Source: an uncultured Christensenellaceae bacterium (GTDB lineage: Bacteria; Bacillota; Clostridia; Christensenellales; SZUA-584). From it: 64,000 bases of DNA. The notes under the pieces were generated by a model that ran no database searches, had not been told where the DNA came from, and saw nothing but the letters and a program-made list of their open reading frames with translations. Both the position numbers and the translations under genes were made by a program. Each line of letters starts with the position of its first letter. Position 1 is the stretch's first letter. The stretch lies in the NCBI GenBank assembly GCA_964586785.1, contig CAZPHS010000003.1, forward strand, positions 5,062 through 69,061, given 5' to 3'. Shown here in pieces: positions 2,415 to 32,060 of this stretch.

Positions 2415-3392
2415 ATGATTAACAAAATAGCGTTTACTATACCCATAGGTGAAGGTTTTAACGTATACTGGTACGGCGTTATAATAGCGGCTGCGGTTTT
2501 GGTTGCCGTAACGCTCGGGACTATCGAATCAAAAAGAAGAGGCTATCGCTCTGAAATGGTGTTGGATTTTATGCTTCTCGCGATACCTTTGGGAATACTG
2601 TTCGCGCGGCTTTATTACGTGGTATTTTCGGATATCGCGTACAACAGCATAATTGACGTTATTGCCATATGGAACGGAGGGCTTGCGATATACGGCGCGG
2701 TAATAGGCGGCTCCATTGCCGCGGTGATTTTCTCCAAATGGCGGAAAGTGCCTCTCGGAGAGCTGTTTGATATAGCGGCTCCAAGCATAATAATTGCGCA
2801 GGCGATAGGGCGCTGGGGCAATTTTGTAAACCAGGAAGCTCACGGGGTATTGATAACCAGCCAAAACTGGCAGTGGTTTCCCGCGGGCGTCAACATCGGA
2901 GGCCAATGGTTCATGGCGACTTTTTTCTATGAATCGGTATGGAATTTAATTATATTCGCTGTTCTGATGCTTATAAGAAAGAAGATGAAGGTAAGGGGCG
3001 GGGTATTCGCGCTGTATGTGGCATTATACGGTTTTGGGCGTTTCTTTATAGAAGCGCTAAGGACTGACAGCCTTTTTGTCGGCGAATTCAGAGTGTCCCA
3101 GCTGCTGAGCGCCGCGCTTGTGGTTGCCGGAATACTGTATATAGTTTTGATGTCAAGAAAAAAGAAAGAATGGCCGGCATACGAAGGTTTTTACAGTATA
3201 AACTTAAGCTTAGAGCAGATTGAGGAATATAGGGAAAGCATGAAGAAAACCAAAACAAAAAAAGACAAGGACGAGACAGAAACGGACGAGATGAAAGAGA
3301 GCGCGGAAAAAGAGCAAAAAGAGAGTAAAAAGGTATCAAAAAAGAATAAAGATAAGAAATCGGATAAAAACGAAGAGAACAACGAAGAGTAA
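2415..3392 (+). CDS. lgt: prolipoprotein diacylglyceryl transferase with a long K/E/D-rich C-terminal tail
   Basis: Lgt signature GRWGNFVNQEAHG and a multi-TM profile. The last ~68 aa are a charged low-complexity tail (KKTKTKKDKDETETDEMKESAEKEQKESKKVSKKNKDKKSDKNEENNEE). Confidence 0.9.
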   Translation: MINKIAFTIPIGEGFNVYWYGVIIAAAVLVAVTLGTIESKRRGYRSEMVLDFMLLAIPLGILFARLYYVVFSDIAYNSIIDVIAIWNGGLAIYGAVIGGSIAAVIFSKWRKVPLGELFDIAAPSIIIAQAIGRWGNFVNQEAHGVLITSQNWQWFPAGVNIGGQWFMATFFYESVWNLIIFAVLMLIRKKMKVRGGVFALYVALYGFGRFFIEALRTDSLFVGEFRVSQLLSAALVVAGILYIVLMSRKKKEWPAYEGFYSINLSLEQIEEYRESMKKTKTKKDKDETETDEMKESAEKEQKESKKVSKKNKDKKSDKNEENNEE

Positions 3393-3497
3393 GTTATAAG
3401 TATTAGTATTAACGCAAAATAAGACCGGTCAATTAGCGCCGTCCGACAGTTTATACATTCGGGCGGTGTTATTATTTTGGCAAAGGAGGGTGGTCTT

Positions 3498-3944
3498 ATG
3501 GAAAAATTAAAAAAGAGCATTATGGGAAAATATAATGCCGGTGATGTCGATAAACTGCTGCAAAAGGTAAGAGAAGACTATGAACAGTGCTTAAAAAATC
3601 AGAAAGAAAGGATATTGTTGCTCAGGGACGAAAATAAAGATATGGCAGGTATGCTTGAAGCGTATAAAAGGAATGAGCAAAACATATTAAGCGCTATAAC
3701 CCACGCCGAAGAGAAGGCGCAAAGTATAATCCGGCAGGCAAAGGAAAAGGCGGCGTTATGTTTGGAAAACGCGCAAAGGGAAGCGCAGAGCATAAGAAGC
3801 TCCGCCGAATGCTATTATCAGCGTTTATGCAGCCTGAAAAAAGCGAGCGAAACCATACACAAAGCGTTTGATAAGGTTATAAACGAAGAGCGTACCAATG
3901 TGCGGCCGTTTGTCGCCAATTCGGACAAAACGCAAACATACTGA
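3498..3944 (+). CDS. DivIVA-domain coiled-coil protein
   Basis: KKSIMGKYNAGDVDKLLQKVREDYEQCLKNQKE matches the DivIVA N-terminal pattern (GY..eVD.fLd.v..dYe), followed by a coiled coil. An AAGGAGGG RBS sits 7 nt before the ATG at 3498. Confidence 0.65.
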   Translation: MEKLKKSIMGKYNAGDVDKLLQKVREDYEQCLKNQKERILLLRDENKDMAGMLEAYKRNEQNILSAITHAEEKAQSIIRQAKEKAALCLENAQREAQSIRSSAECYYQRLCSLKKASETIHKAFDKVINEERTNVRPFVANSDKTQTY

Positions 3945-3955
3945 CGCCGCGCCGG

Positions 3956-3981
3956 GGCTGCCGCAAGGCAGCCTCGCTTTT
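3956..3981 (+). terminator. rho-independent terminator after the DivIVA-like gene
   Basis: GGCTGCC-GCAA-GGCAGCC hairpin followed by TCGCTTTT. Confidence 0.7.
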
Positions 3982-4086
3982 CGGGTCTCATATGTTTGGA
4001 ACACGCTGCGAAAAAACGCCAAACAACGTAAAATACCGGGTCTTGGGATTTTTGACGGAAAAGATATGTTGATGCCTGAACGCTAA

Positions 4087-4450
4087 AAGACCTGTTATTG
4101 TTCCAATTCTCGCCGGCCTTTGGAAAACGGCATGTATGAGATCGTGGCTGGTCACAACAGGGTTAAAGTGTCTGATTTAACTTCAGGACAACTTGTCCCC
4201 GAAGTTAGTAGAAGCAAGAGAAAAAGTTGCAAATGTGGCAGGAGAAAACTATAAACAAATATTAAGGTATATACGGTTGACTCAGCTTACACCACAACTT
4301 TTGGAGAAGATAGATGAGAAGAAGCTGGCGTTCATACCGGCTGTCGAGTTGTCATATCTCAAGGAGCGCGAACAAAAGTGGTCCTTGGATGAAATCACAA
4401 GGTCATTTCTGTGGAGCCCATACATTCTGATTAACGTTAGGACTATATAG
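4087..4450 (+). pseudogene. ParB/Srx-like (ICE/IME-type) gene remnant, frameshifted and internally deleted
   Basis: One frame reads ENGMYEIVAGHNRVKV, the ParB N-terminal GxYEIxxGHxR box. Another frame reads YKQILRYIRLTQLTPQLLEKIDEKKLAFIPAVELSYLKEREQ. The middle of the gene is missing and the tail is nonsense. Confidence 0.7.
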
Positions 4451-4472
4451 TGTTAATATTTAAGGCTTAATT

Positions 4473-4522
4473 TGCAGACTGCATGGATGTATGTTCTTCA
4501 GTTGCAGACCATGCAGACTGCC
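4473..4522. repeat. cluster of short palindromic TGCAGACTGC repeats
   Basis: TGCAGACTGC occurs at 4473-4482 and 4512-4521, with a partial TTGCAGAC at 4502-4509. GCAGACTGCATGG (4474-4486) and CCATGCAGACTGC (4509-4521) form a near-perfect inverted repeat. Confidence 0.6.
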
Positions 4523-4637
4523 ATCTTCCTTATCAGATGTATACCGCCCGCGTCATTCATTCAGAAAACGGTTTCTATACAAACATATTCAAATAGCCAG
4601 TTAACGCACCCTTTATATCTATAATATAAGATCGAAA

Positions 4638-4687
4638 TTGACACTTGCAATTACCCGGTGCTATAATAAATAGAAAACGATAACTAT
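4638..4687 (+). promoter_or_regulatory. consensus sigma-A promoter plus LacI-type operator motif (copy 1)
   Basis: TTGACA (4638-4643), 18 nt, TATAAT (4662-4667), then ATAGAAAACGATAACTAT (4670-4687) with a central CG. The same 21-nt string recurs at 11513-11533. Confidence 0.7.
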
Positions 4688-4699
4688 CAATGAAGGGAT

Positions 4700-5698
4700 G
4701 TGTTTGTCTTGATTATCGATTGTCACAACCATATACTGGCAGCGGGAGAATACCCCGGATATGAAAAGTTTATTAAAGAAATGACGCTTGGTTATTTCAG
4801 ATCAATGGGAAAATTGCCGGTAGACAGAATGCCGGTAGACAGCGACTGGGAAGGTATGGAATACCTATGGGCGCCGACTAGCCCCGAAAAGCTCAAAAAG
4901 GACCATCCGGGCATCGACAGGTGTACGATTCTCGCGGTAGCGCCTTCTGATTATACGGCTTACAGCATCCGAGGCAGCATAGACGTGGCAGGGCAGACCA
5001 ATGTACCGGGTCCTCCTTCTATTGATAAGGGAAACGACTATATTGCGGACATCGTGAAGTCTGACCCTAATTATTTCATAGGTTTTTGCGCGGTCAACCC
5101 AAAATACAAGGGTGTCGATGCGGCAGTCAGAGAGCTTGACAGAGCGATTAACGAGCTTGGATTAACCGGACTTAAGCTTTATCCATCGTACGACCATTAT
5201 TCTCCGGATGATAGGGAGCTTGCGTTTCCCATATTTGAAAAAGCACAGGAGTTGGGTATACCGGTTATGGTTCACCAGTCCTCAACGCCTGTTATCGATG
5301 CACCGCTTAAATTTGGAAGGCCCTTCCTGTTGGATGATGTTGGCTGCGCATTCCCGAATTTAAAACTACTGGCTTGCCATGCGGGTGCGCCATGGGTAGA
5401 CGAATGCCTTGTGTTGGCCGCAAAGCATCCCAATTTTTATATCGACATATCATTTTATAACAGCCTGTTGAGCGCTAAGGATACGCTGCTGTTTTTGCAC
5501 AAGTGTGTCGCATACGGTCTGCCGCTGGCAAAGGTATGCTGGGGAACGGACTATCCCGGCTTTGAGATGCCAAGGCAGCTGCTAGAAAAATTTATGAGCA
5601 TCAACCAATTTGCCAAAGAGCTTGGAGTCGCGCCCATTTCGCAGCAGGATATGGACGGATTGCTGGGACAAAACTATCTGAACTTTATTTCCCGGTAA
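4700..5698 (+). CDS. amidohydrolase-2 family metal-dependent hydrolase (TIM barrel; decarboxylase/lactonase-type)
   Basis: N-terminal IIDCHNHI metal-binding motif, later VMVHQS and CHAGAPW, and a DY motif near the C-terminus (WGTDYPG). This is typical of PF04909-like enzymes. The start is ambiguous (GTG 4700 or TTG 4709). Confidence 0.7.
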   Translation: MFVLIIDCHNHILAAGEYPGYEKFIKEMTLGYFRSMGKLPVDRMPVDSDWEGMEYLWAPTSPEKLKKDHPGIDRCTILAVAPSDYTAYSIRGSIDVAGQTNVPGPPSIDKGNDYIADIVKSDPNYFIGFCAVNPKYKGVDAAVRELDRAINELGLTGLKLYPSYDHYSPDDRELAFPIFEKAQELGIPVMVHQSSTPVIDAPLKFGRPFLLDDVGCAFPNLKLLACHAGAPWVDECLVLAAKHPNFYIDISFYNSLLSAKDTLLFLHKCVAYGLPLAKVCWGTDYPGFEMPRQLLEKFMSINQFAKELGVAPISQQDMDGLLGQNYLNFISR

Positions 5699-5779
5699 CA
5701 CGAGCTTTCAGATTTAATAAATTGCATTTTAACGGGGCAGTCTTAAAGTAGGGCTACCCCGTTAAATGGAGGAATTTTT

Positions 5780-6231
5780 GTGTTTCACATTTTGACCAAA
5801 GCAGACTGTTCAAAAATACATGAAGAAGCGCTCAACGTGCTTAAAACCACGGTTGTCAGAAGCAAAGACAAGCCCATGTATGATAAACTGGCCGGTTCCG
5901 CGTAGGCATACCTGTCAGCGAAGAAACGCTCGCAGCGGATGTTATCAAGGAAGTTGGCTTTTCTGGTGATTACCTGTTGACAGATACGATGCGTCATTTT
6001 AGAAATACATTATGGAGCCTTGAGCTTGCGAACCGTTTGACCCGGAATGTATGGGAAAACCGCAGCACGATGTCCATTGAGCAAAGAGCCGCTGAAAAGG
6101 TGAACAGCATACTGTCTCAAAAGCAGGATATCTATGTGGAACAAAGTCAGCTCAGCAAGCTGGAAAGAATCAGAAAGAAGTGGATGAAAAAGCTGACGCA
6201 GCTTATAAGGTGGGAGGCACAGAATGAGTAA
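5780..6231 (+). pseudogene. MttB-superfamily (trimethylamine/betaine-type) methyltransferase remnant with large internal deletion
   Basis: The N-terminal piece VFHILTKADCSKIHEEALNVLKTTVV... has its own GGAGG RBS and ends at a TAG (5903-5905). The C-terminal piece GIPVSEETLAADVIKEVGFSGDYLLTDTMRHFRNTLW...EQRAAEKVNSIL lies in another frame. Roughly 300 codons of the centre are absent. Confidence 0.65.
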
Positions 6232-6976
6232 AACGGCGATCATAACCGGCGGCAGCAGAGGCATAGGCTTTGCGATAGCGCAGCAGCTTGGCAAAGACGG
6301 TTACAACATTGTGATAACGGCCTCCGGCAGCAAACAGAAGTATACCGAGAATTTAGATGAGCTAAATAAAAACAGCATACCGCATGTGTATGTGCAGGCC
6401 GATATTTCGAAATCTTACGACAGGCTGAGCTGCTTTAACCGGGCGCTCGATGCTTTTGGCGGTGTGGATGTGCTGGTGAACTCTGCCGGAGTGGCACAAA
6501 AAGTGCGTGCCGACCTGCTTGAGATGACGGAGGAAAGCTTCGATCATGTGTTGTCGATAAACCTAAAAGGACTGCTTTTTTTTACACAGCTTGTTGCAAA
6601 CCAAATGGTAAAAAAACAGGAGGGCTGCATCATCAATATTTCTTCGCTGTCTGCTTACGCGGCATCGGTCAACCGAGGCGAGTATTGCATATCCAAAGCG
6701 GGAGTCAGCATGGTGACATCGCTTTTTGCGGACAGACTGGCCAAAGAGGGTATTTTGGTATATGAAGTGCGCCCCGGCATCATAGCGACCGATATGACGT
6801 CGGGCGTTGTACAAAAATACGATGCGCTTATTGAACAGGGCATTTTTCCGATTGCGCGATGGGGTAGGCCGCAGGACGTCGCCGATGCGGTTAGCGTTTT
6901 GTGCAGTGGAAAGTTTTCCTATTCAACCGGACAGGTGATCAATGTTGACGGCGGATTTCACATTCGACGTCTGTAG
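6224..6976 (+). CDS. short-chain dehydrogenase/reductase (SDR)
   Basis: TGGSRGIG cofactor motif, NSAG, and the YxxxK catalytic motif (YCISKAG). A GGGAGG RBS is present. The ATG overlaps the stop of the MttB remnant (ATGAGTAA). Confidence 0.85.
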   Translation: MSKTAIITGGSRGIGFAIAQQLGKDGYNIVITASGSKQKYTENLDELNKNSIPHVYVQADISKSYDRLSCFNRALDAFGGVDVLVNSAGVAQKVRADLLEMTEESFDHVLSINLKGLLFFTQLVANQMVKKQEGCIINISSLSAYAASVNRGEYCISKAGVSMVTSLFADRLAKEGILVYEVRPGIIATDMTSGVVQKYDALIEQGIFPIARWGRPQDVADAVSVLCSGKFSYSTGQVINVDGGFHIRRL

Positions 6977-8929
6977 ATGAGGGCTATGGATACACTGAGA
7001 TTAAGCGGGCATAAGGTTAGAATTGTTTCCATGAATACGGCCGTGGTGGGCGCAGGCGCCGCGGGGCTTTGTGCTTTGGGCAGGTTTTATGCCTACGGTC
7101 AGCGCGATATCGCTTTAATCTGCGAGGATATAAAAGCCGGCACATCCCGCAACACAGGGTCGGACAAGCAGACATATTATAAACTCACGCTTTCGGGTTC
7201 AAAACCCGATTCAGTACGCAGCATGACAAAAACGCTGTTTGACGGATTATGCGTTGACGGCGATATTGCGCTTGCAGAAGCAGCGCTTTCTGCTTCAAGT
7301 TTTTTCTGGCTTGCCGAGATGGGCGTTCCTTTCCCGAAAAACAGGTATGGCGAATACACAGGGTACAAGACCGATCACGATCCGATGCAGAGGGCAACTT
7401 CTGCAGGCCCATTAACATCCAAAATGATGACAGAGGCTTTGGAAGCCGACATCAAACAAAAGGGCATAAAAGTATATAACGGATATCAGGTGATTCGTAT
7501 CATAACAGAGTGCGGCAGTATACGTGGTCTTTTATGCCTTGATCTTAATATAGAAGACAGAGCCGAATATGTGCTGTTCAACTGCAAGAATGTGATTTAC
7601 GCAACGGGCGGACCGGCGGCTATCTATCAAGATTCGGTTTATCCCTTGAACCATTACGGTTCGAGCGGTATTGCTTTTGAAGTAGGCGTCAAAGGTAAAA
7701 ACCTGACCGAATGGCAATATGGGTTGGCTTCTGTCGCTCCGAGGTGGAACGTATCGGGCTCTTATATGCAGGCGCTGCCAAGATTTTTTTCTGCCGATCA
7801 AAAGGGCCGTCATCAAAGAGACTTTTTAAAAGAATACTTTAAAAACGACGCGGTTTATCTAAATCGTGTGTTCTTAAAGGGCTACCAGTGGCCGTTCGAT
7901 GTCAGCCGTATTGAAAATGGTTCATCGGTTATCGATTTGCTGGTTTATGAGGAAACCAGAAAAGGGCGCAGGGTCTTTATCGATTATACGCAAAACCCGC
8001 TGGATACCATGGATTATTCGCTGCTTGAAAATGAGGCGTTTGAATACCTTGAGAAAGCGGATATGCTTTTTGGTACACCGATTGAGCGGCTGATACGGCT
8101 TAACGAACCCGCTTATGCGCTCTACCGCGATAAGGGCGTGGATTTAAAGACGCAGCCGCTGGAAATCGCACTGTGCGCACAGCATCATAACGGCGGCCTT
8201 TCTACCGATTGCTGGTGGCAGACCAATGTTGAGGGCTTTTTTGCTGTGGGAGAGGTGAGCGCGACGCATGGCGTGTACCGGCCCGGCGGCAGCGCATTGA
8301 ACGCAGGCCAAGTGGGTGCCGAACGCGCTGCGCTTTATATATCAGTGAGACGCAAAGGCAGCCCTGGAGCTAACGATGCGTTTATAAAAGCAGCAGCAAA
8401 TTCTGCAATGGAGCTTATAGAGTGTGCAGACAGCGCTTGGGGCAGTACGGATAATGTCGTAGAGCTTTTTTCGGATGCCGCAAAACGTATGAGCCTTGCA
8501 GGGGCGGCGGTCAGATGTAAAAAACAAATTGAACAGGCCATAGACCGGGTAAAAAAACTGATGGATGGTTTCTCAAAAAGTGTTCAGGTAGCGTCGGTCG
8601 CTTCCTTGAGCCGCTTCTTTTATTTGCGTGATGCGCTGTTGAGTCAGTATGTCGTTTTAAACGCAATGGCCGATTATATCGATCGCGGAGGCGGAAGCCG
8701 CGGTTCGGCAGTATATCCGGACGAAATGGGAGAGAAAACCGTCGCTCTGTCCGATCGCACATTCTCGTTCTCGTCAGCAGACTTAAAATTTGGGCATATG
8801 GTACAGGAAACATTGCTTAAAAACGGACAATGTACATTTTTTTGGAGACCGGTGCGACCTATCCCCGGCGAAGACGATCTTTTTGAAAATGTATGGAGAA
8901 GATACAGGGAAGATAAAAATATCTATTAG
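6977..8929 (+). CDS. FAD-binding flavoprotein of the fumarate reductase / succinate dehydrogenase / L-aspartate oxidase type
   Basis: N-terminal VVGAGAAG dinucleotide fold; ATGGPA; HHNGGLSTD...FFAVGEVSATHGVYRPGGSALNAGQVGAERAA, resembling the FrdA/NadB C-terminal FAD segment. Substrate unknown. Confidence 0.65.
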   Translation: MRAMDTLRLSGHKVRIVSMNTAVVGAGAAGLCALGRFYAYGQRDIALICEDIKAGTSRNTGSDKQTYYKLTLSGSKPDSVRSMTKTLFDGLCVDGDIALAEAALSASSFFWLAEMGVPFPKNRYGEYTGYKTDHDPMQRATSAGPLTSKMMTEALEADIKQKGIKVYNGYQVIRIITECGSIRGLLCLDLNIEDRAEYVLFNCKNVIYATGGPAAIYQDSVYPLNHYGSSGIAFEVGVKGKNLTEWQYGLASVAPRWNVSGSYMQALPRFFSADQKGRHQRDFLKEYFKNDAVYLNRVFLKGYQWPFDVSRIENGSSVIDLLVYEETRKGRRVFIDYTQNPLDTMDYSLLENEAFEYLEKADMLFGTPIERLIRLNEPAYALYRDKGVDLKTQPLEIALCAQHHNGGLSTDCWWQTNVEGFFAVGEVSATHGVYRPGGSALNAGQVGAERAALYISVRRKGSPGANDAFIKAAANSAMELIECADSAWGSTDNVVELFSDAAKRMSLAGAAVRCKKQIEQAIDRVKKLMDGFSKSVQVASVASLSRFFYLRDALLSQYVVLNAMADYIDRGGGSRGSAVYPDEMGEKTVALSDRTFSFSSADLKFGHMVQETLLKNGQCTFFWRPVRPIPGEDDLFENVWRRYREDKNIY

Positions 8930-8946
8930 CTAAAAGGTGAGGCACA

Positions 8947-10239
8947 ATGATTGAAGAAATAAAAAAACGTTGTAAAGATCAGGGTATCCAAATCGGTTTT
9001 AGCGAGGATATCGGCATATTTAAGAAAAAGAAAGCTTTAGGCCGATTTGAGCTTGAAAACACGCTTGCGGTATTGCCTATGGAAGGAAACGATTCGGAGG
9101 AGTCAGGGGCGCCGTCCGAACTGACATTCCGCCGGTACAGGCGTTTCGCGCAAGGCGGAGCAGCGTTGATATGGGTAGAGGCGATTGCCGTTCAAAAAGC
9201 GGGCAGAGCCAGCCCGCATCAGCTTTACCTTGACAACCAGACACAGGAAGCTTTTGCTAAGCTGTGCGCGATGATAAAACGTGAGGGGCTCGACAAAAAC
9301 GGTTTTGAGCCTGTTGTAATCGCCCAATTGACGCATTCGGGACGATACTCAAAACCACAAGGCCCTCCAAGCCCTATAATTGCGGCGCGCAACCCCTGGC
9401 TGGATGAAAAATACAATATTCCAAAAACGCTTTCGCCAATCAATGATGAATCCCTTTTAGAACTGGAGAAAAAATTCTTTAATGCAGCGCTGCTTGCAAA
9501 GCAGGCCGGGTTTGACGGAATCGATATCAAAATGTGCCACGGATATCTGCTCAACGAGCTGTTGTCGGCATTTACGCGCAAAGGAGACTTTGGCGGCAGT
9601 TATCAGGGCAGGACACGATTTGCAAGGGATACCGTTAAGAATATCAGAGAAAAGACGGGTGAAGGCTTTATTATCGGCAGCAGGATGAGCCTGTTTGATG
9701 CCATGCCGTATCCGTACGGTTTTGGCATGACACAAGACGGTACCGTAAAAAGCGATTTGACTGAGCCGGTCAAGCTGATAATGGAACTGAGCCAGCTTGG
9801 CCTTGATGTCGCAGCAATAACAATCGGCAACCCCTACTATAAACCGCATTACAACAGGCCTTACGACAAAGGATTCTATGAACCGCCCGAACCTGCCTTA
9901 AAAGGCGTAGAACGTATACTGACGCTGACTAAAAACGTTAAGGAACAAACAAAGGATGTGCTTATAATAGGAGCGGGTTACACGTATCTGCGTGAAGCGG
10001 CAACCGAGGCGGGTGCGTACGCACTGCAAAACAACTATGCGGATTTAATAGGATTTGGCAGACAAGCCTTTGCATATCCTGATTTTGCATCTGACATTGT
10101 AAAGAATGGATGCCTAGACACAAAAAAAGTATGCATCACCTGTTCAAAATGCACAGAGATTATGCGAAAAGGCGGGCCGACAGGCTGTGCCATCAGAGAT
10201 TTTAAGTACAGAGAGATTTATAAGGAATACTGCCTGTGA
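8947..10239 (+). CDS. NADH:flavin oxidoreductase (Old Yellow Enzyme TIM barrel) with C-terminal Cys cluster, lacking the usual reductase domain
   Basis: OYE-type segments (AQLTHSGR, DGIDIKMCHGYLLNELLS) and a terminal CITCSKCTEIMRKGGPTGC Fe-S-like motif. At 430 aa it stops where FadH/BaiH-type enzymes continue into an FAD/NAD(P) domain. Confidence 0.75.
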   Translation: MIEEIKKRCKDQGIQIGFSEDIGIFKKKKALGRFELENTLAVLPMEGNDSEESGAPSELTFRRYRRFAQGGAALIWVEAIAVQKAGRASPHQLYLDNQTQEAFAKLCAMIKREGLDKNGFEPVVIAQLTHSGRYSKPQGPPSPIIAARNPWLDEKYNIPKTLSPINDESLLELEKKFFNAALLAKQAGFDGIDIKMCHGYLLNELLSAFTRKGDFGGSYQGRTRFARDTVKNIREKTGEGFIIGSRMSLFDAMPYPYGFGMTQDGTVKSDLTEPVKLIMELSQLGLDVAAITIGNPYYKPHYNRPYDKGFYEPPEPALKGVERILTLTKNVKEQTKDVLIIGAGYTYLREAATEAGAYALQNNYADLIGFGRQAFAYPDFASDIVKNGCLDTKKVCITCSKCTEIMRKGGPTGCAIRDFKYREIYKEYCL

Positions 10240-10241
10240 AG

Positions 10242-11291
10242 TCAGTTTGTAATTTGGCGCACGGTATCGCGTACGATAAGTCTTGGTTCAATTTTGAGAC
10301 TGGCATCCAAGGGCGTGCTGCCGTTTATTTTGTCGATCAATATTCTGCCGGCTAGATCGCCCATCTCGAACGCGAAGCATTTCACCGTGGTGAGCGCCGG
10401 TGAAAACATTGATGCAAAAGGAATATCGTCGAAACCGATGACCGAAACATCGCGTGGTACCTTTAAGCCCCCTTTATTGAGTTCTTGTATAAAGCCGAAC
10501 GCCACCATATCATTGACGCAAAGCGCCCCGGTTGCATCACATTTTAATTGTATAAACCGCTTTGCTAGCTGCGTGCCGATTGTATATTCGTAGCCGAACT
10601 GGTTTTCTTCCTGTTCGCTGTCCGCTTCAAATATGATGGGTTCGCCGGGCGTATCGGCACGCTCAGAAAGTGCGTCCAGATAACCTTTAGATGTTTCTCT
10701 GCGTGTCCAGCGAGTAAGGGGTGTTGTAATCAGCGCAATTTTGGTGTGGCCCTGATTAACAAGGTATTCGGTGGCAATTCTTGCCCCCTCGCGCGAATCA
10801 AAGAGTATATTGGTGCAGTTTTTGTCTTCAATTCGCTGGTCCAGCAACACAAAATTCATGCCTTTTCGAGAAAACTCCAGTATATTCTTACCGTCTTTGG
10901 CAACGGCGGATATGATGACGCCGTTAACTCTTTTGTTGTAGAGTATTTGCAGATAATTCCGTTCATCTTCAGCATGTCGAAACGTGTTGCACAAAAGTAT
11001 GTTGTATCCGCGTTTATGGATTTGTTTTTGTATACCGAGCAGCGCCGTCGAATAAAAAGGGTTCGAGACCGTTGGGACGATGACGCCGATTTCGCTGCTT
11101 GTTGAGGATTTTAAACCACGTGCCATTGCGTTGGGCGAGTAGTCAAGCTTCTCGACAACATCAAGAACCCTTTGACGCAATTTATCCGATACCGGATAGC
11201 CGTTATTGCTCAGAACACGCGAAACAGTTGTTGCGGACGTTCCCGAAAATTTTGCTACATCATGTATGGTATAATTCTTTTTGATTTGCAT
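10242..11291 (-). CDS. LacI-family transcriptional regulator
   Basis: N-terminal HTH (YTIHDVAKFSGTSATTVSRVLSN) plus a periplasmic-binding-protein-like sugar-binding core. It is divergent from the ABC/hydrolase operon. Confidence 0.9.
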   Translation of the reverse strand: MQIKKNYTIHDVAKFSGTSATTVSRVLSNNGYPVSDKLRQRVLDVVEKLDYSPNAMARGLKSSTSSEIGVIVPTVSNPFYSTALLGIQKQIHKRGYNILLCNTFRHAEDERNYLQILYNKRVNGVIISAVAKDGKNILEFSRKGMNFVLLDQRIEDKNCTNILFDSREGARIATEYLVNQGHTKIALITTPLTRWTRRETSKGYLDALSERADTPGEPIIFEADSEQEENQFGYEYTIGTQLAKRFIQLKCDATGALCVNDMVAFGFIQELNKGGLKVPRDVSVIGFDDIPFASMFSPALTTVKCFAFEMGDLAGRILIDKINGSTPLDASLKIEPRLIVRDTVRQITN

Positions 11292-11350
11292 GGCAGACCC
11301 CTGTTTTAACCGACTATTTCTGTTAATATATAATTATTTATCAAGCGGTT

Positions 11351-11406
11351 TAGTTATCGATTTCTAATTTAATAGAAATTATATACCATTGCAACTTCAA
11401 TGTCAA
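11351..11406 (-). promoter_or_regulatory. lacI-family gene promoter with operator motif (copy 3, opposite orientation)
   Basis: On the minus strand: TTGACA (11406-11401), 17 nt, TATAAT (11383-11378), then TAGAAATCGATAACTA (11366-11351). This differs at one position from the core of copies 1 and 2. An extra TTTCTA/TAGAAA pair sits at 11361-11378. Confidence 0.6.
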
Positions 11407-11480
11407 ATTAATGCGCAATTAACCTATATCTTAAGCATTCGGAGTATTTTGAATGATACTATTCAGGTAAATCTGTATGC

Positions 11481-11544
11481 TTGACACTAAAAATGATTGC
11501 TGATATAATTACAAAATAGAAAACGATAACTATATGTTTTCTAT
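11481..11544 (+). promoter_or_regulatory. consensus sigma-A promoter plus LacI-type operator motif (copy 2)
   Basis: TTGACA (11481-11486), 17 nt, TGATATAAT extended -10 (11501-11509), then ATAGAAAACGATAACTAT (11516-11533). GTTTTCTAT (11536-11544) forms a perfect 9-nt inverted repeat with ATAGAAAAC. Confidence 0.7.
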
Positions 11545-11586
11545 ACAATTTGAAATGAATATTGCAATAAGGGAGGATGCGTTATT

Positions 11587-12414
11587 GTGACAAAGAAAAT
11601 CGCTGTATTGCAGATTGATTCGGTTTTGGCGGATATAGATGCGAACTTATCCAAGATAGATAAGATGATCGGATCGATCAACGACAGGGATGTGCGTATG
11701 GCTGTTTTCTGCGAATACGGATTGACAGGGTACTGCACTGATTTGAATAAAATCGCCGAACCTGTTCCGGGTAGAATGATAAATGCCCTTGAAGCGATTT
11801 CGAAAAAGCACAACATATGGATCAGCGGAGGCACTGCAGAGCTGGTAGGCGACAAAATCGCCAATACAACAGTAATGATTTCTCCTGATAACGGTATGGT
11901 GGCAAAGTACAGAAAAATACATCCTTTCGGTGACGAGAGAAATGCCATCATTTATGGTGATGAGCCTGTTGTCGTCGATACCGAGATAGGAAAAGTCGGT
12001 ATGACAATCTGTTATGACTTTATTTTTCCAGAGCTTGTACGCGGGCTCGCGCTTAAAGGCGCCGAAATCATTCTCAATTCAACATTCTGGTTTGCTGATG
12101 ATATCAGCGGTCCCGCCGGTTTTGAGCCCGAACAGGTCATGTCGCTGGCAAGAATCAGAGCGCTTGAAAACAACGTTTATGTGGCCATGGCGTGCCGTAC
12201 CGGCGAAGAAACGGCACCATGGGGCGGAAAGGTGCGCGGTTTCGGGTATTCTTCAATTGCAGGCCCTGTCGGGAAAACGCTTGCTCACGCCGGTCTTGGA
12301 GAGATGGTTATTACAGCGGATATCGATCTTGAAAAACGCAAGGCATGGGCTGAATATGCTGCGTATTTAAAGGACCGCAGGCCGGATATCTATAAAAACA
12401 TTCTTGATTTTTAA
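11587..12414 (+). CDS. carbon-nitrogen hydrolase (nitrilase superfamily; amidase/N-carbamoyl-amidase type)
   Basis: The E-K-C triad context is intact: VFCEYGLTGY, KYRKIHPF, GMTICYDFIFPE. A GGGAGGA RBS precedes the GTG start. Confidence 0.85.
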   Translation: MTKKIAVLQIDSVLADIDANLSKIDKMIGSINDRDVRMAVFCEYGLTGYCTDLNKIAEPVPGRMINALEAISKKHNIWISGGTAELVGDKIANTTVMISPDNGMVAKYRKIHPFGDERNAIIYGDEPVVVDTEIGKVGMTICYDFIFPELVRGLALKGAEIILNSTFWFADDISGPAGFEPEQVMSLARIRALENNVYVAMACRTGEETAPWGGKVRGFGYSSIAGPVGKTLAHAGLGEMVITADIDLEKRKAWAEYAAYLKDRRPDIYKNILDF

Positions 12415-12435
12415 AAAGCTTTTATGGGAGAGAAA

Positions 12436-13389
12436 ATGAGTAAAACCCAGATAGTAAACCAATACAATAGCGTCTATATCGTAATGGTCCTACTGTGCGT
12501 TGCGGCTTTTATATACAAACCCTCGTATATGCAAGCTGAGAACATTTATGTCATGCTCAGGCAGACATCGGCACTTGGCATGCTAGCGTTGGGGCAGCTG
12601 TTTGTCATATCGGCAGGCGGCGTTGACCTATCCGTCGCGGCCACGATGCAGGGCGCTGTAACGATTTTCATGTTCAGTTCCAATACCTACGGTCCTGCAG
12701 GATTGGTTGTCGGGATCGTTTTGAGTCTGATCGCCGGACTGATTGTCGGCCTTATAAACGGAATCATTATTGCCAAGTTTAAAGTACAGCCTTTTCTGAC
12801 AACTCTTTTTACAGGCGCCATACTGGTCGGCATCAGACGCGTATTTGCAGGTGTTACACCGATGGGCGTTGCACCCCGGCAAATAATGGACATTGTCAAA
12901 GGCGAAAAGTCGGGCGCTTTTCCAAATGCTTCGTTGATTTTTCTGTTTTTCTCTGTAATTGTGTTCGTAATTTTCAAGTACACGGTTTACGGCAGAAAAA
13001 TCATGTCGGTAGGAACAAATCCGACTGCGGCGTTGTTCTCGGGATATAAAATAGACCGCATTAAAATATCGACGTATTGCATAAGCGCATTGGCTGCAGT
13101 GCTTTCCTCAATCGTTATGGTCGGTTACACGGGATACGCAGACCAGGAGGCACTGGGGAAAGGCATGGAGATGGATTCGCTCGTGGCGGTCGTGCTTGGC
13201 GGCAATTATCTTGGCGGCGGCCGCGGATCGGTTGTCGGTACGGTGGGCGGCGTGCTTGTCACAACATTAATTATCAACATTGTAATACTGTTCGGATTTG
13301 AAATACAGCATCAATATGTTGTCAAGGGCGTTATATTGCTGCTTGTTACATTTATCGCTTCACTTGTCAGAAAAAATGCACATGTTTAA
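12436..13389 (+). CDS. ABC transporter permease, ribose/CUT2 type (RbsC-like)
   Basis: About 10 TM segments with the RbsC-like GGVDLSV motif. I start at MSKTQ (12436) behind a GGGAGAG RBS. Confidence 0.85.
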   Translation: MSKTQIVNQYNSVYIVMVLLCVAAFIYKPSYMQAENIYVMLRQTSALGMLALGQLFVISAGGVDLSVAATMQGAVTIFMFSSNTYGPAGLVVGIVLSLIAGLIVGLINGIIIAKFKVQPFLTTLFTGAILVGIRRVFAGVTPMGVAPRQIMDIVKGEKSGAFPNASLIFLFFSVIVFVIFKYTVYGRKIMSVGTNPTAALFSGYKIDRIKISTYCISALAAVLSSIVMVGYTGYADQEALGKGMEMDSLVAVVLGGNYLGGGRGSVVGTVGGVLVTTLIINIVILFGFEIQHQYVVKGVILLLVTFIASLVRKNAHV

Positions 13390-30793: not shown

Positions 30794-30839
30794 AAAAGAA
30801 AAAGTCCGAAAACCCTGTATTTATCGGTGTTCTCGGACT
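30794..30839 (-). terminator. rho-independent terminator of tRNA-Ser
   Basis: On the minus strand: AGTCCGAGAAC...GTTTTCGGACT hairpin (30839-30803) followed by TTTTTCTTTT. Confidence 0.7.
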
Positions 30840-30841
30840 TT

Positions 30842-30935
30842 TGGCGGAGAAGCCGGGATTTGAACCCGGGCACCGGTTACCCCGGTCTACTCCCTTAGCA
30901 GGGGAGCCCCTTCAGCCGTACTTGGGTACTTCTCC
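30842..30935 (-). tRNA. tRNA-Ser (anticodon GCU), CCA encoded
   Basis: Minus strand: GGAGAAG acceptor, anticodon stem-loop CTCCC-CTGCTAA-GGGAG, long variable arm, T-arm CCGGGTTCAAATCCCGG, CTTCTCC-G-CCA. The discriminator is G. Confidence 0.9.
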
Positions 30936-30957
30936 ACAGACGCTTTAAAACCAGTTT

Positions 30958-30987
30958 ATTATAAGAGATAACCGGCTCGGCTGTCAA
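30958..30987 (-). promoter_or_regulatory. sigma-A promoter of tRNA-Ser
   Basis: Minus strand: TTGACA (30987-30982), 18 nt, TATAAT (30963-30958), about 22 nt upstream of the mature tRNA 5' end. Confidence 0.65.
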
Positions 30988-30990
30988 CTG

Positions 30991-31467
30991 TCAAACATGA
31001 CGGAATTTCGCGTTGTCGCGCCGCATATTAACCATATCGACACCAAATTCGTTGCGAGAGGACACTATGGTATAGCCAAGCTTATTGTAGAAGCTAATAT
31101 TTTTTACGCTGTCTTTTGCGGTAAACAATATAAACCCGCGGCAATCTTTGTACATATCGTGTACGGCAAACATGAGCGACTGACCGATTCCTTTACGCTG
31201 GTGATAGGGATGCACGGAAAGCCTGCCTATATAACAGTCGCCATTTCCGTCCGGACACGCCCTGACAGAACCCGCTATTTTACCGTTAAGTGTGTATTTG
31301 AACATTGTCATTCTTTCAAAATCGCCCGTTATCTGCTCAATTGTTTCTGTCATAGGAGCGATATCGGGCCTTTCGCTCTTAAGCGCGATTGGCGCGAATG
31401 CTGCTTTCTGCACCTCTAAAACTTCGGCCAAATCCTTTTTTTCAACCATAACGACTAACCCGTCCAT
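30991..31467 (-). CDS. GNAT-family N-acetyltransferase
   Basis: Acetyl-CoA motif A HQRKGIGQSLM inside a ~158-aa GNAT fold. A GGAGG RBS sits 5 nt before the ATG at 31467. The ORF-track extension to 31569 runs through the T-box terminator. Confidence 0.8.
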   Translation of the reverse strand: MDGLVVMVEKKDLAEVLEVQKAAFAPIALKSERPDIAPMTETIEQITGDFERMTMFKYTLNGKIAGSVRACPDGNGDCYIGRLSVHPYHQRKGIGQSLMFAVHDMYKDCRGFILFTAKDSVKNISFYNKLGYTIVSSRNEFGVDMVNMRRDNAKFRHV

Positions 31468-31510
31468 TTTTGCCTCCGCGTAAATAATAAAAATTTTGCT
31501 GCGTCTTTTT

Positions 31511-31783
31511 AGAAAAATAAAATAAGCCTTATCCTCAAGGGACAAAAGCTTATGCTTCTGCGGTACCACCCAAATTGATGATATAAATCACCCGCTCGTT
31601 TCGCATACAATAATATGCACCCCGCTGATAACGGAAGGGGTTCCCGTCGGCGCCTATTTCCGGACAGGTTTCAGGCCGCCCTCACAAGTCCATTCGGTAA
31701 AATCTGTGCTGCCGCGTTCCCATCGCCCGCGGCTTTCTTTATACACCCGATATTACTTACTAATCATGCTCTTAGGTTTATCT
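31511..31783 (-). promoter_or_regulatory. T-box riboswitch leader (tRNA-sensing transcription attenuator)
   Basis: Minus strand carries AAUUUGGGUGGUACCGC (31576-31560), the conserved T-box sequence. A K-turn-like GCGAUGGGAA sits near 31726-31717, with distal stem I elements UGUGAG and CCUGAAACC. The terminator is AUAAGC-U-UUUGUCC/GGAUAAG-GCUUAU (31553-31522) plus UUUUAUUUUU. Confidence 0.85.
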
Positions 31784-31789
31784 TAATAA

Positions 31790-31819
31790 ATTATATGTTA
31801 TTTGCTGTAATCATGTCAA
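31790..31819 (-). promoter_or_regulatory. sigma-A promoter driving the T-box leader
   Basis: Minus strand: TTGACA (31819-31814), 18 nt, TATAAT (31795-31790). Confidence 0.65.
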
Positions 31820-31940
31820 TAAAAAAACGGTTTTACTTCTTTACTTGTGATTAGGCATTATGATTTTGTTTATATATAATGTAAGCGCAGTTATCGCTTA
31901 AGCATACCGGACACGATAAGGCAACCAATAGTAGGGGCGG

Positions 31941-31982
31941 AAAAAACAAAGAAAACAGGGCGGCCTTGCTCTGTTTTCTTTG
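31941..31982 (-). terminator. strong orphan intrinsic terminator-like hairpin (minus-strand orientation)
   Basis: CAAAGAAAACAG (31947-31958) pairs with CTGTTTTCTTTG (31971-31982), a perfect 12 bp extendable to ~15 bp. On the minus strand it is followed directly by TTTTTT (31946-31941). No annotated minus-strand gene lies upstream. Confidence 0.55.
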
Positions 31983-32060
31983 ATTGATGAAAAAAACACC
32001 GCAAGCGTAACCGAGGTTTAATTATTCACGCGCCTGAACAACAAATCAGCATATTGCCTC

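Follow-up and report, generated by a model that had tools for sequence, protein, structure and literature searches.

In the survey of T-box riboswitches published in 2008, the genes reported to lie downstream of these elements are: (i) tRNA ligase genes (62%); (ii) biosynthesis genes (18%); (iii) transporter genes (12%); and (iv) genes of unknown or unrelated function (8%) (PMC2494555). T-boxes upstream of trpE have been described in Bacillota (Gutierrez-Preciado et al., 2005, cited in PMC2494555), and trpE T-boxes are also listed in the survey itself. In Bacillus subtilis, a Trp T-box stands over the non-biosynthetic genes rtpA(yczA)-ycbK (anti-TRAP) (Sarsero et al., 2000, cited in PMC2494555; PMC10327191) while, in Streptococcus agalactiae, a Val T-box is placed directly upstream of the GNAT gene SAG0442/SAK_0545 in supplementary file 1 of the survey (Wels et al., 2008, PMC2494555). 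Here, we describe a T-box followed by one single gene, that of a GNAT-family acetyltransferase of 158 amino acids, on the minus strand of a stretch of 64 kb (contig CAZPHS010000003.1, positions 5,062 to 69,061; hereafter, the window) from an uncultured Christensenellaceae bacterium. In our reading, to which we give a probability of about 0.8, the leader is a canonical tRNA-Trp T-box, a deletion of ~7.4 kb removed eight biosynthetic genes of the operon that it used to control, and an intact GNAT gene of the Trp regulon still stands behind the switch.

With the trpE T-box leaders of Bacillota, the window leader shares the Rfam family, the UGG specifier, the terminator/antiterminator logic and the promoter-leader architecture. 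It differs from them in its cargo: the genes from trpE to aroG are missing, and the GNAT gene is the first and only one past the terminator. As in the case of rtpA-ycbK, what lies under the control of a tRNA-Trp-sensing T-box is not a gene for a synthetase, a biosynthetic enzyme or a proven transporter; but anti-TRAP is a regulator that binds zinc and whose target is known, while the product encoded in the window is a GNAT enzyme, and its arrangement would have arisen by deletion. The S. agalactiae case is similar in that a T-box immediately precedes a GNAT gene, so that such a neighbourhood is unusual but has a precedent. The S. agalactiae specifier is, however, that for Val, and its GNAT gene is the first of an operon of three to four genes.

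The window leader matches Rfam family RF00230 end to end (model positions 1-219) with 92.8 bits and an E-value of 1.3e-20 (cmscan on 1.5 kb, E-value mode). A sequence-only reading of this DNA, made earlier, had placed a T-box upstream of the GNAT gene and had named the covariance model as one way to check it. The region does score, and the T-box stands, as do the consensus promoter, the 13-bp terminator with its U-tract, the UGGU bulge and the 158-amino-acid GNAT gene with a GGAGG ribosome-binding site of its own that the same reading had reported (Table 1). With a curated gathering score of 93 for the family, the match falls short by 0.2 bits; orthologous leaders, with 93.5-106.3 bits, exceed that score. 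When the full 64 kb were run at the Rfam gathering thresholds, zero matches were obtained and even the tRNA-Ser gene of the window was missed (53.3 bits in the 1.5-kb search vs. a gathering score of 29). The cause seems to be the filtering of long input, and negative whole-window Rfam results need a local re-scan before they are trusted.

The elements of the leader are well preserved among its homologues. Both promoter hexamers are invariant across the homologous trp-operon leaders in the leader alignment, and the Stem I helix is recovered in the RNAalifold consensus of six leaders, where one of its pairs covaries between UA and AU in three sequences. The UGG specifier is common to the six Clostridia-clade leaders (those of the window and of the lineages L003, L004, L006, L009 and L021) and to a Chloroflexota leader (L032); all these leaders, apart from that of the window, precede trp operons. 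The terminator hairpin is followed by the U-tract (UUUAUUUUU), and bases 31553..31538 serve both as 3' strand of the antiterminator and as 5' arm of the terminator. Zero promoter-like sites were found at the scan threshold (9 of 12 consensus positions) in the DNA that separates this terminator from the start codon. The best candidate seen by eye is a TATTAT at 31489..31484 with a -35 element of only 3/6, from which transcription would start approximately at the ribosome-binding site; an independent GNAT promoter downstream of the terminator was rejected, as no site reaches the threshold. The only tRNA gene detected by ARAGORN in the window is that of tRNA-Ser, with no tRNA-Trp gene whose discriminator base could be compared with the A73 that the sequence-only reading had predicted from UGGU. 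Judged by its sequence, the leader is a canonical transcription-terminating T-box, with a predicted specificity for Trp (UGG) and the standard mechanism.

By analogy with other members of the T-box family, the switch would work as follows: (i) the anticodon of uncharged tRNA-Trp would pair with the UGG specifier; (ii) its free NCCA end would pair with the UGGU bulge; (iii) this pairing would stabilise the antiterminator (31572..31538) over the terminator (31553..31522); and (iv) RNA polymerase would then read into the sole downstream gene, the GNAT gene. Charged Trp-tRNA would fail to stabilise the antiterminator, and transcription would stop at the U-tract.

The origin of this arrangement is suggested by the relatives of the GNAT gene. 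A single-sequence search gave only two of them, with 73% and 68% identity, and both are the last gene after trpE-G-D-C-F-B-A and an aroG-type DAHP synthase gene. On both contigs (L003 and L004) a T-box is located upstream of trpE (100.3 and 106.3 bits in Rfam), with the specifier loop GAA-UGG-A. A profile search added relatives of 54, 53, 50 and 51% identity which likewise end trpEGDCFBA-aroG-GNAT operons, and a metagenome scan added one further lineage with the full operon (L021; GNAT 45% identical) and no second direct T-box-GNAT fusion. In total, the complete operon, with an identical order of genes, is present in seven lineages (L003, L004, L006, L009, L012, L015 and L021); where the contig reaches far enough, that is, in L006, L009 and L021, an upstream T-box with UGG was found as well. 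The spacers between aroG and GNAT measure 1-43 nt (37 nt in L021, from open reading frame calls made in this analysis, as that contig has no called-gene table), and the flanks past the operon vary by lineage (tRNA-Ser, lactamase_B, BlaR-like, HTH).

A scan of the GTDB species representatives returned one single match, the L004 metagenome-assembled genome (MAG) from an uncultured Christensenellaceae bacterium (Bacillota, Clostridia, Christensenellales). The GNAT clade is, therefore, seldom met with among genomes, and most of what is known of it comes from metagenomes. GNAT relatives with identities of 44% or less are found in unrelated contexts with no common theme (ACP/KAS-like genes, transposase, NfeD, HipA and others), which confines the link with trp genes to the close clade and to the TrpF fusions described below.

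Unlike the other members of its clade, the window GNAT gene does not directly follow aroG as the last gene of a trp operon; instead, the leader adjoins the gene. When the eight intervening proteins were used as tblastn queries, no trp or aroG genes were found in the window. Since synteny is kept on both flanks, the lack of such neighbours is interpreted as a secondary loss. On the 5' side of the junction, the counterpart of the window sequence is the DNA that follows the trp-leader terminator in the relatives; on the 3' side, shortly before the ribosome-binding site, it is their aroG-GNAT spacer. The tRNA-Ser gene, whose promoter starts 4 nt past the GNAT stop codon, is syntenic with L004 and provides the right-hand anchor for the proposed deletion. 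Moreover, an independent contig from another sequencing run (Logan L031) spans the same arrangement over 2786 nt, across rbgA-rplS/T-box-GNAT, with 99.93% identity, so the junction is not an assembly artefact.

Both the leader and the GNAT gene of the window are closest to those of L003 and L004, and the more distant L006, L009, L012, L015 and L021 carry the full operon too. As nearer and farther lineages all keep it, parsimony points to the full operon as the ancestral state and to the loss of ~7.4 kb in the window lineage. The ancestral unit would have been T-box - trpE-G-D-C-F-B-A - aroG - GNAT; a deletion that removed the eight biosynthetic genes would have joined the DNA just past the leader terminator to the spacer in front of GNAT and, in this way, most likely fused the trp leader to the last gene of the operon.

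Table 1. Features of the T-box-GNAT locus and blastn alignments with the two closest relatives (window coordinates)
Feature	Position	Strand	Basis and details
Upstream flank	31982..31923		L004 758-816, upstream of the L004 T-box promoter, 80% (blastn)
Promoter + leader + terminator	31827..31506	-	L004 946-1270, 85% (blastn)
Promoter + leader + terminator	31821..31506	-	L003 46-359, 84% (blastn)
Sigma-70-type promoter	31819..31790	-	-35 TTGACA 31819..31814, 18-nt spacer, -10 TATAAT 31795..31790; 12/12 consensus positions
T-box leader RNA, RF00230, full-length class: Stems I, II, IIA/B, III + antiterminator	31535..31782	-	cmscan; 248 nt in model match
Stem I	31680..31776	-	cmscan alignment; AG bulge AGAAA 31738..31734 (consensus AGAGA); distal loop ~31727..31716
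Specifier loop, 3' side, GAA-UGG-A	31695..31689	-	cmscan; UGG (Trp codon) 31692..31690, then conserved purine A 31689
Stem II	~31678..31648	-	cmscan alignment; AAUA instead of consensus AGUA
Stem IIA/B element	31647..31629	-	cmscan alignment
Stem III	31593..31577	-	cmscan alignment + RNAalifold consensus
T-box sequence AAUUUGGGUGGUACCGC	31576..31560	-	sole match in the window, even with 3 mismatches allowed
T-box sequence + antiterminator helix	31576..31538	-	near-identical in all six leaders
T-box bulge UGGU	31568..31565	-	read within the T-box sequence
Intrinsic terminator	31553..31513	-	hairpin 31553..31522 (13 pairs, one bulged U, loop CUUGA), U-tract 31521..31513; fold of 31582..31505
Deletion junction (proposed)	31505..31478	-	blastn coordinates + alignments; exact base blurred by sequence divergence
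Ribosome-binding site GGAGG	31477..31473	-	5 nt upstream of ATG; homologous GGAGG/GAGG in aroG-GNAT spacers
GNAT	31477..31012	-	L004 GNAT, 72% (blastn)
GNAT	31467..31012	-	L003 GNAT, 79% (blastn)
GNAT acetyltransferase gene	31467..30991	-	158 aa + stop; Pfam matches, AlphaFold2 model, orthologues ending trp operons
tRNA-Ser promoter + gene	30988..30883	-	L004 9314-9414, directly after L004 GNAT, 92% (blastn)
tRNA-Ser(GCU)	30935..30842	-	ARAGORN; own promoter 30987..30958, 12/12

Regarding the protein, three Pfam GNAT families match it above their cut-offs: PF13673 (55.1 bits; cut-off 23.6), PF00583 (49.1; 20.7) and PF13508 (48.0; 27). The AlphaFold2 model (predicted local distance difference test, pLDDT, 90.8) has the GNAT alpha/beta fold, with Foldseek TM-scores of 0.7-0.83 to solved GNATs. 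Among the 50 best of 884 structural matches, these are generic small GNATs of 14-20% identity (RimI, PaiA, Ard1, and structural-genomics or putative acetyltransferases); the best PDB sequence match, 2atr, is a structural-genomics deposit titled 'acetyltransferase, GNAT family'. Neither the structural nor the PDB sequence comparison, which gave generic GNATs only, offered a clue to the substrate, and no NCBIfam equivalog reached its cut-off.

The acetyl-CoA pyrophosphate-binding motif (Q/R-x-x-G-x-G/A) reads Q90-R-K-G-I-G95, of which Q90, G93, I94 and G95 are invariant in the clade, as are Y127 and Y132. The clade was delimited by an identity of 45% or more and by the signature PDI[PA]PMTET ... 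CYIGRL.V.P..Q..GIG; in the protein alignment, the window GNAT shows 43-73% identity to the members and contains the signature, the first motif of which occupies the loop that connects helices 1 and 2, a stretch modelled by AlphaFold2 without secondary structure. Public gene calls give a version of 192 amino acids (P0001, P0266; 30991..31569, minus strand) with a GTG start inside the T-box sequence, and so hide the riboswitch inside a 'coding sequence'. As the start of every homologue coincides with the M-D/Y-G of the 158-amino-acid form (P0265), the longer version is an over-call.

The sequence-only reading had also contemplated a GNAT that modifies aminoacyl-tRNA. Such an enzyme, of the type of the toxins TacT, AtaT and ItaT, was rejected: the neighbours of the gene are the T-box leader and tRNA-Ser, with no open reading frame for a partner antitoxin, and there is no specific similarity, these toxins being absent from the 45 PDB sequence matches and from the 50 best of the 884 structural ones.

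One of the matches of the profile search carried a TrpF domain. A search with that protein gave at least 120 proteins of ~365-375 amino acids which combine phosphoribosylanthranilate isomerase (TrpF) and GNAT, and which are annotated only as one or the other; the few with an organism name come from Chloroflexota/Anaerolineales MAGs. The GNAT domain of one such fusion is 41% identical to the window GNAT (E 1e-29) and has the same signatures (IPP[ML]T[EQ]T and C.IGRL.V.P..Q.RG.G). On the Chloroflexota contig L032 (2.8 Mb), at 3336..13007, the gene order is T-box - trpE-trpGD-trpC-trpF::GNAT-trpS-PDDEXK-trpB-trpA, the T-box scoring 81.8 bits (E 1e-16) with the specifier loop GAA-UGG-A, and the gene between trpS and trpB being of the PDDEXK_3 type. 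The resemblance to the window GNAT lies, then, in the domain, its signatures and an operon behind a Trp (UGG) T-box, whereas the Chloroflexota domain is fused to TrpF, sits mid-operon next to trpS and belongs to a different phylum. A palindromic hairpin of ~100 nt is present in the same operon between trpF::GNAT and trpS (9142..9245 of L032), with matches to miRNA-precursor models on both strands at 30-39 bits, far under the thresholds; it probably represents either a long inverted repeat or an intra-operon attenuator/terminator.

Membership of the operon in Clostridia, together with the TrpF fusion in a Chloroflexota Trp T-box operon, places the GNAT subfamily in Trp T-box regulons of two phyla. 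Going by gene context, the subfamily is a recurrent, as yet uncharacterised, member of the tryptophan regulon. The sequence-only reading would have considered itself refuted if homologous T-box-GNAT pairs were common and already had an assigned function. Regarding the former, the pairing is indeed clade-wide, in the form of operon co-membership, and recurs as the TrpF::GNAT fusion in another phylum. Regarding the latter, no assigned function came to light: within the searchable library, no description was found of a GNAT as a member of the trp operon, of a TrpF-GNAT fusion, or, apart from the S. agalactiae entry, of a T-box plus an acetyltransferase.

What the leader is and how it came to lie next to the GNAT gene can be explained in other ways. 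The sequence-only reading had taken it for a short T-box of the glyQS type that has no Stem II, whose specifier is GGC (Gly) or CCC (Pro) and which is dedicated to an acetyltransferase. Both triplets do exist in the leader, and glyQS-type T-boxes have in common with it Stem I, Stem III and the antiterminator core. Nevertheless, glyQS leaders lack Stems II and IIA/B (PMC11404447) whereas the covariance model aligns both in the window leader, and it is inside them that GGC and CCC are located, UGG being the triplet that occupies the specifier loop before the conserved purine. Given, in addition, that the leader holds the full set of elements along its model match and that the orthologous leaders control trp operons, practically no weight can be given to a Gly or Pro specificity. 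From the idea of a T-box dedicated to the GNAT gene, one part survives, as no other gene follows the T-box here; the other does not, since the leader would derive from a trp biosynthesis operon and would not have evolved for the acetyltransferase. The dedicated riboswitch is thus replaced by a simpler reading, namely a Trp T-box that a deletion apparently left in front of the last gene of its operon. One could also invert the polarity of the event, the T-box-GNAT pair being ancestral and the relatives having acquired the trp-aroG genes by insertion between its two parts. The direction is certainly inferred and not observed, but nothing specific speaks for such an insertion. It would require either a single insertion, with the window losing the genes later all the same, or the same insertion many times over, when the seven lineages with the full operon share its gene order and include all those more distant than L003 and L004; besides, T-boxes before trpE are the documented norm (PMC2494555). 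This inverted order of events, already disfavoured by parsimony, is very improbable.

A deletion being accepted, the remnant could still be a dead relic: the loss would have produced a Trp auxotroph in which leader and GNAT are no longer selected, any residual regulation being incidental and decaying. Several observations weigh against our reading of a unit kept intact, most of them in favour of such decay: (i) the window leader has the lowest RF00230 score among the five Clostridia-clade leaders scored, and 19 private substitutions at columns which are invariant in four relatives (4-12 in the relatives); (ii) a private G->A at 31735 turns the highly conserved AG bulge AGAGA, kept by all relatives, into AGAAA, and another one at 31723 affects a moderately conserved G of the apical loop (GAUGGGA vs. 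GGUG in the relatives), these two motifs being those that build the platform which stacks on the tRNA elbow (PMC11404447); (iii) AGUA in Stem II has become AAUA at 31657; (iv) the terminator has been remodelled, and its folded segment is weaker (minimum free energy of -17 vs. -22 to -32 kcal/mol in the relatives); (v) the nonsynonymous divergence (dN) of GNAT on the window branch is 0.124, about twice that of the L003 and L004 branches; and (vi) the 64 kb would look the same after a loss of the trp genes from the genome and after their relocation elsewhere within it. The leader substitutions, the weaker terminator and the raised dN would fit some relaxation of constraint after the deletion, and a very recent deletion would give the same picture as a relic. 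On the other hand, the GNAT open reading frame is intact, with its ribosome-binding site, and keeps all clade-invariant residues except G32E, its 1-3 private changes at otherwise invariant columns being no more than those of other members. Its ratio of nonsynonymous to synonymous divergence (dN/dS) is ~0.2, and not ~1 (0.18 in the pairwise comparison with L003 and ~0.23 on the window branch after three-taxon decomposition, both rough values, as dS is near saturation). The leader, for its part, has evolved at about one fifth of the rate of synonymous sites (on the window branch, 0.118 substitutions per site vs. ~0.55), and its promoter is still a perfect consensus. The specifier loop, the T-box sequence and the antiterminator are unchanged with respect to the relatives, and both terminator arms have changed, yet they still pair. 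Finally, AAUA in Stem II is also found in L021 next to a full trp operon, which suggests that the variant is tolerated. A dead relic is, on this balance, unlikely; the unit has probably been under constraint through most of its separate history and would be a working, perhaps weakened, Trp-responsive switch. A related doubt concerns the gene itself, which might be a mere passenger that sits at the 3' end of the operon and has no tie to tryptophan, in which case control by the T-box would be functionally meaningless. GNAT genes are abundant and often scattered, the more distant relatives occur in the unrelated contexts mentioned above, and the structural matches are generic. But the gene stays attached to aroG down to 45% GNAT identity, through short spacers, while the outer flanks differ; at least 120 proteins of the Chloroflexota type join a related domain covalently to TrpF, and one such fusion is encoded in an operon with a Trp T-box and trpS; and this gene is the very one that the deletion left in the window. 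We find the passenger explanation hard to favour, with a small share of the probability left to it.

More tentatively, and with the odds against it, the GNAT may be a genuine but so far unrecognised component of the response to tryptophan starvation, under tRNA-Trp control in two phyla. Its value would be independent of the Trp pathway of the cell itself, as the window lineage kept leader and GNAT after deleting eight biosynthetic genes. In a concrete version of this proposal, the enzyme would N-acetylate an amine that interferes with the charging or supply of Trp; by our own inference, candidate substrates are (i) a Trp mimic or an inhibitor of tryptophanyl-tRNA synthetase, such as tryptamine or an aminoacyl-adenylate analogue; and (ii) an amine of the pathway, such as anthranilate. 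The C-terminal domain of MccE, RimL and YhhY are GNATs that acetylate processed microcin C or aminoacyl-sulfamoyl-adenylates and, in this manner, detoxify synthetase inhibitors. They offer a conceptual parallel only, being absent from the PDB sequence matches and from the 50 best of the 884 structural matches of the window GNAT. Still, induction by uncharged tRNA would make sense as an inducible protection of tRNA charging: if the proposal holds, inhibited Trp charging would induce its own remedy through the T-box.

As for the surroundings of the unit, T-box, GNAT and tRNA-Ser form a small minus-strand island between a plus-strand block of sugar-kinase, MFS and isochorismatase-like genes and the rplS-rbgA-rnhB block. 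Forty-two of the 53 listed open reading frames of at least 180 amino acids are on the plus strand, and most of those on the minus strand overlap longer plus-strand ones. The gap between GNAT and tRNA-Ser holds only a weak terminator-like hairpin of 5 bp, so that transcripts which read through the T-box would probably continue into tRNA-Ser and end at a hairpin at ~30838..30795. Divergent from the T-box promoter, a further unit was observed on the plus strand at 31852..31990, made up of TAGGCA-17-TATAAT (10/12), ~90 nt and a 16-bp hairpin with U-runs on both strands. Its -10 region and hairpin block are kept at the same relative position in L004, where the next gene is 16S rRNA and not, as in the window, rplS. 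This unit, which has no Rfam match, could encode a small RNA or act as a conserved bidirectional terminator.

The riboswitch described here adds nothing new to the mechanism of T-boxes, and its oddity would be explained by the deletion. The locus is, nonetheless, a clean natural case of operon erosion that leaves a riboswitch on one accessory gene, and it calls for caution when gene function is predicted from the specificity of a T-box, or when an unusual cargo is read as evolved regulation. The interest that remains is that of a conserved, tryptophan-linked GNAT, and of whether it is kept for a reason after the loss of the pathway. Three independent genomic lines tie this GNAT subfamily to tryptophan operons: (i) membership of the operon; (ii) fusion with TrpF; and (iii) retention behind a Trp T-box after the loss of the pathway. 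If the enzyme is linked to Trp, the minimal T-box-GNAT unit of the window would be a convenient test system; and if it acts on tryptophan, on a Trp analogue or on an intermediate of the pathway, it would represent a new step or safeguard in a well-studied pathway.

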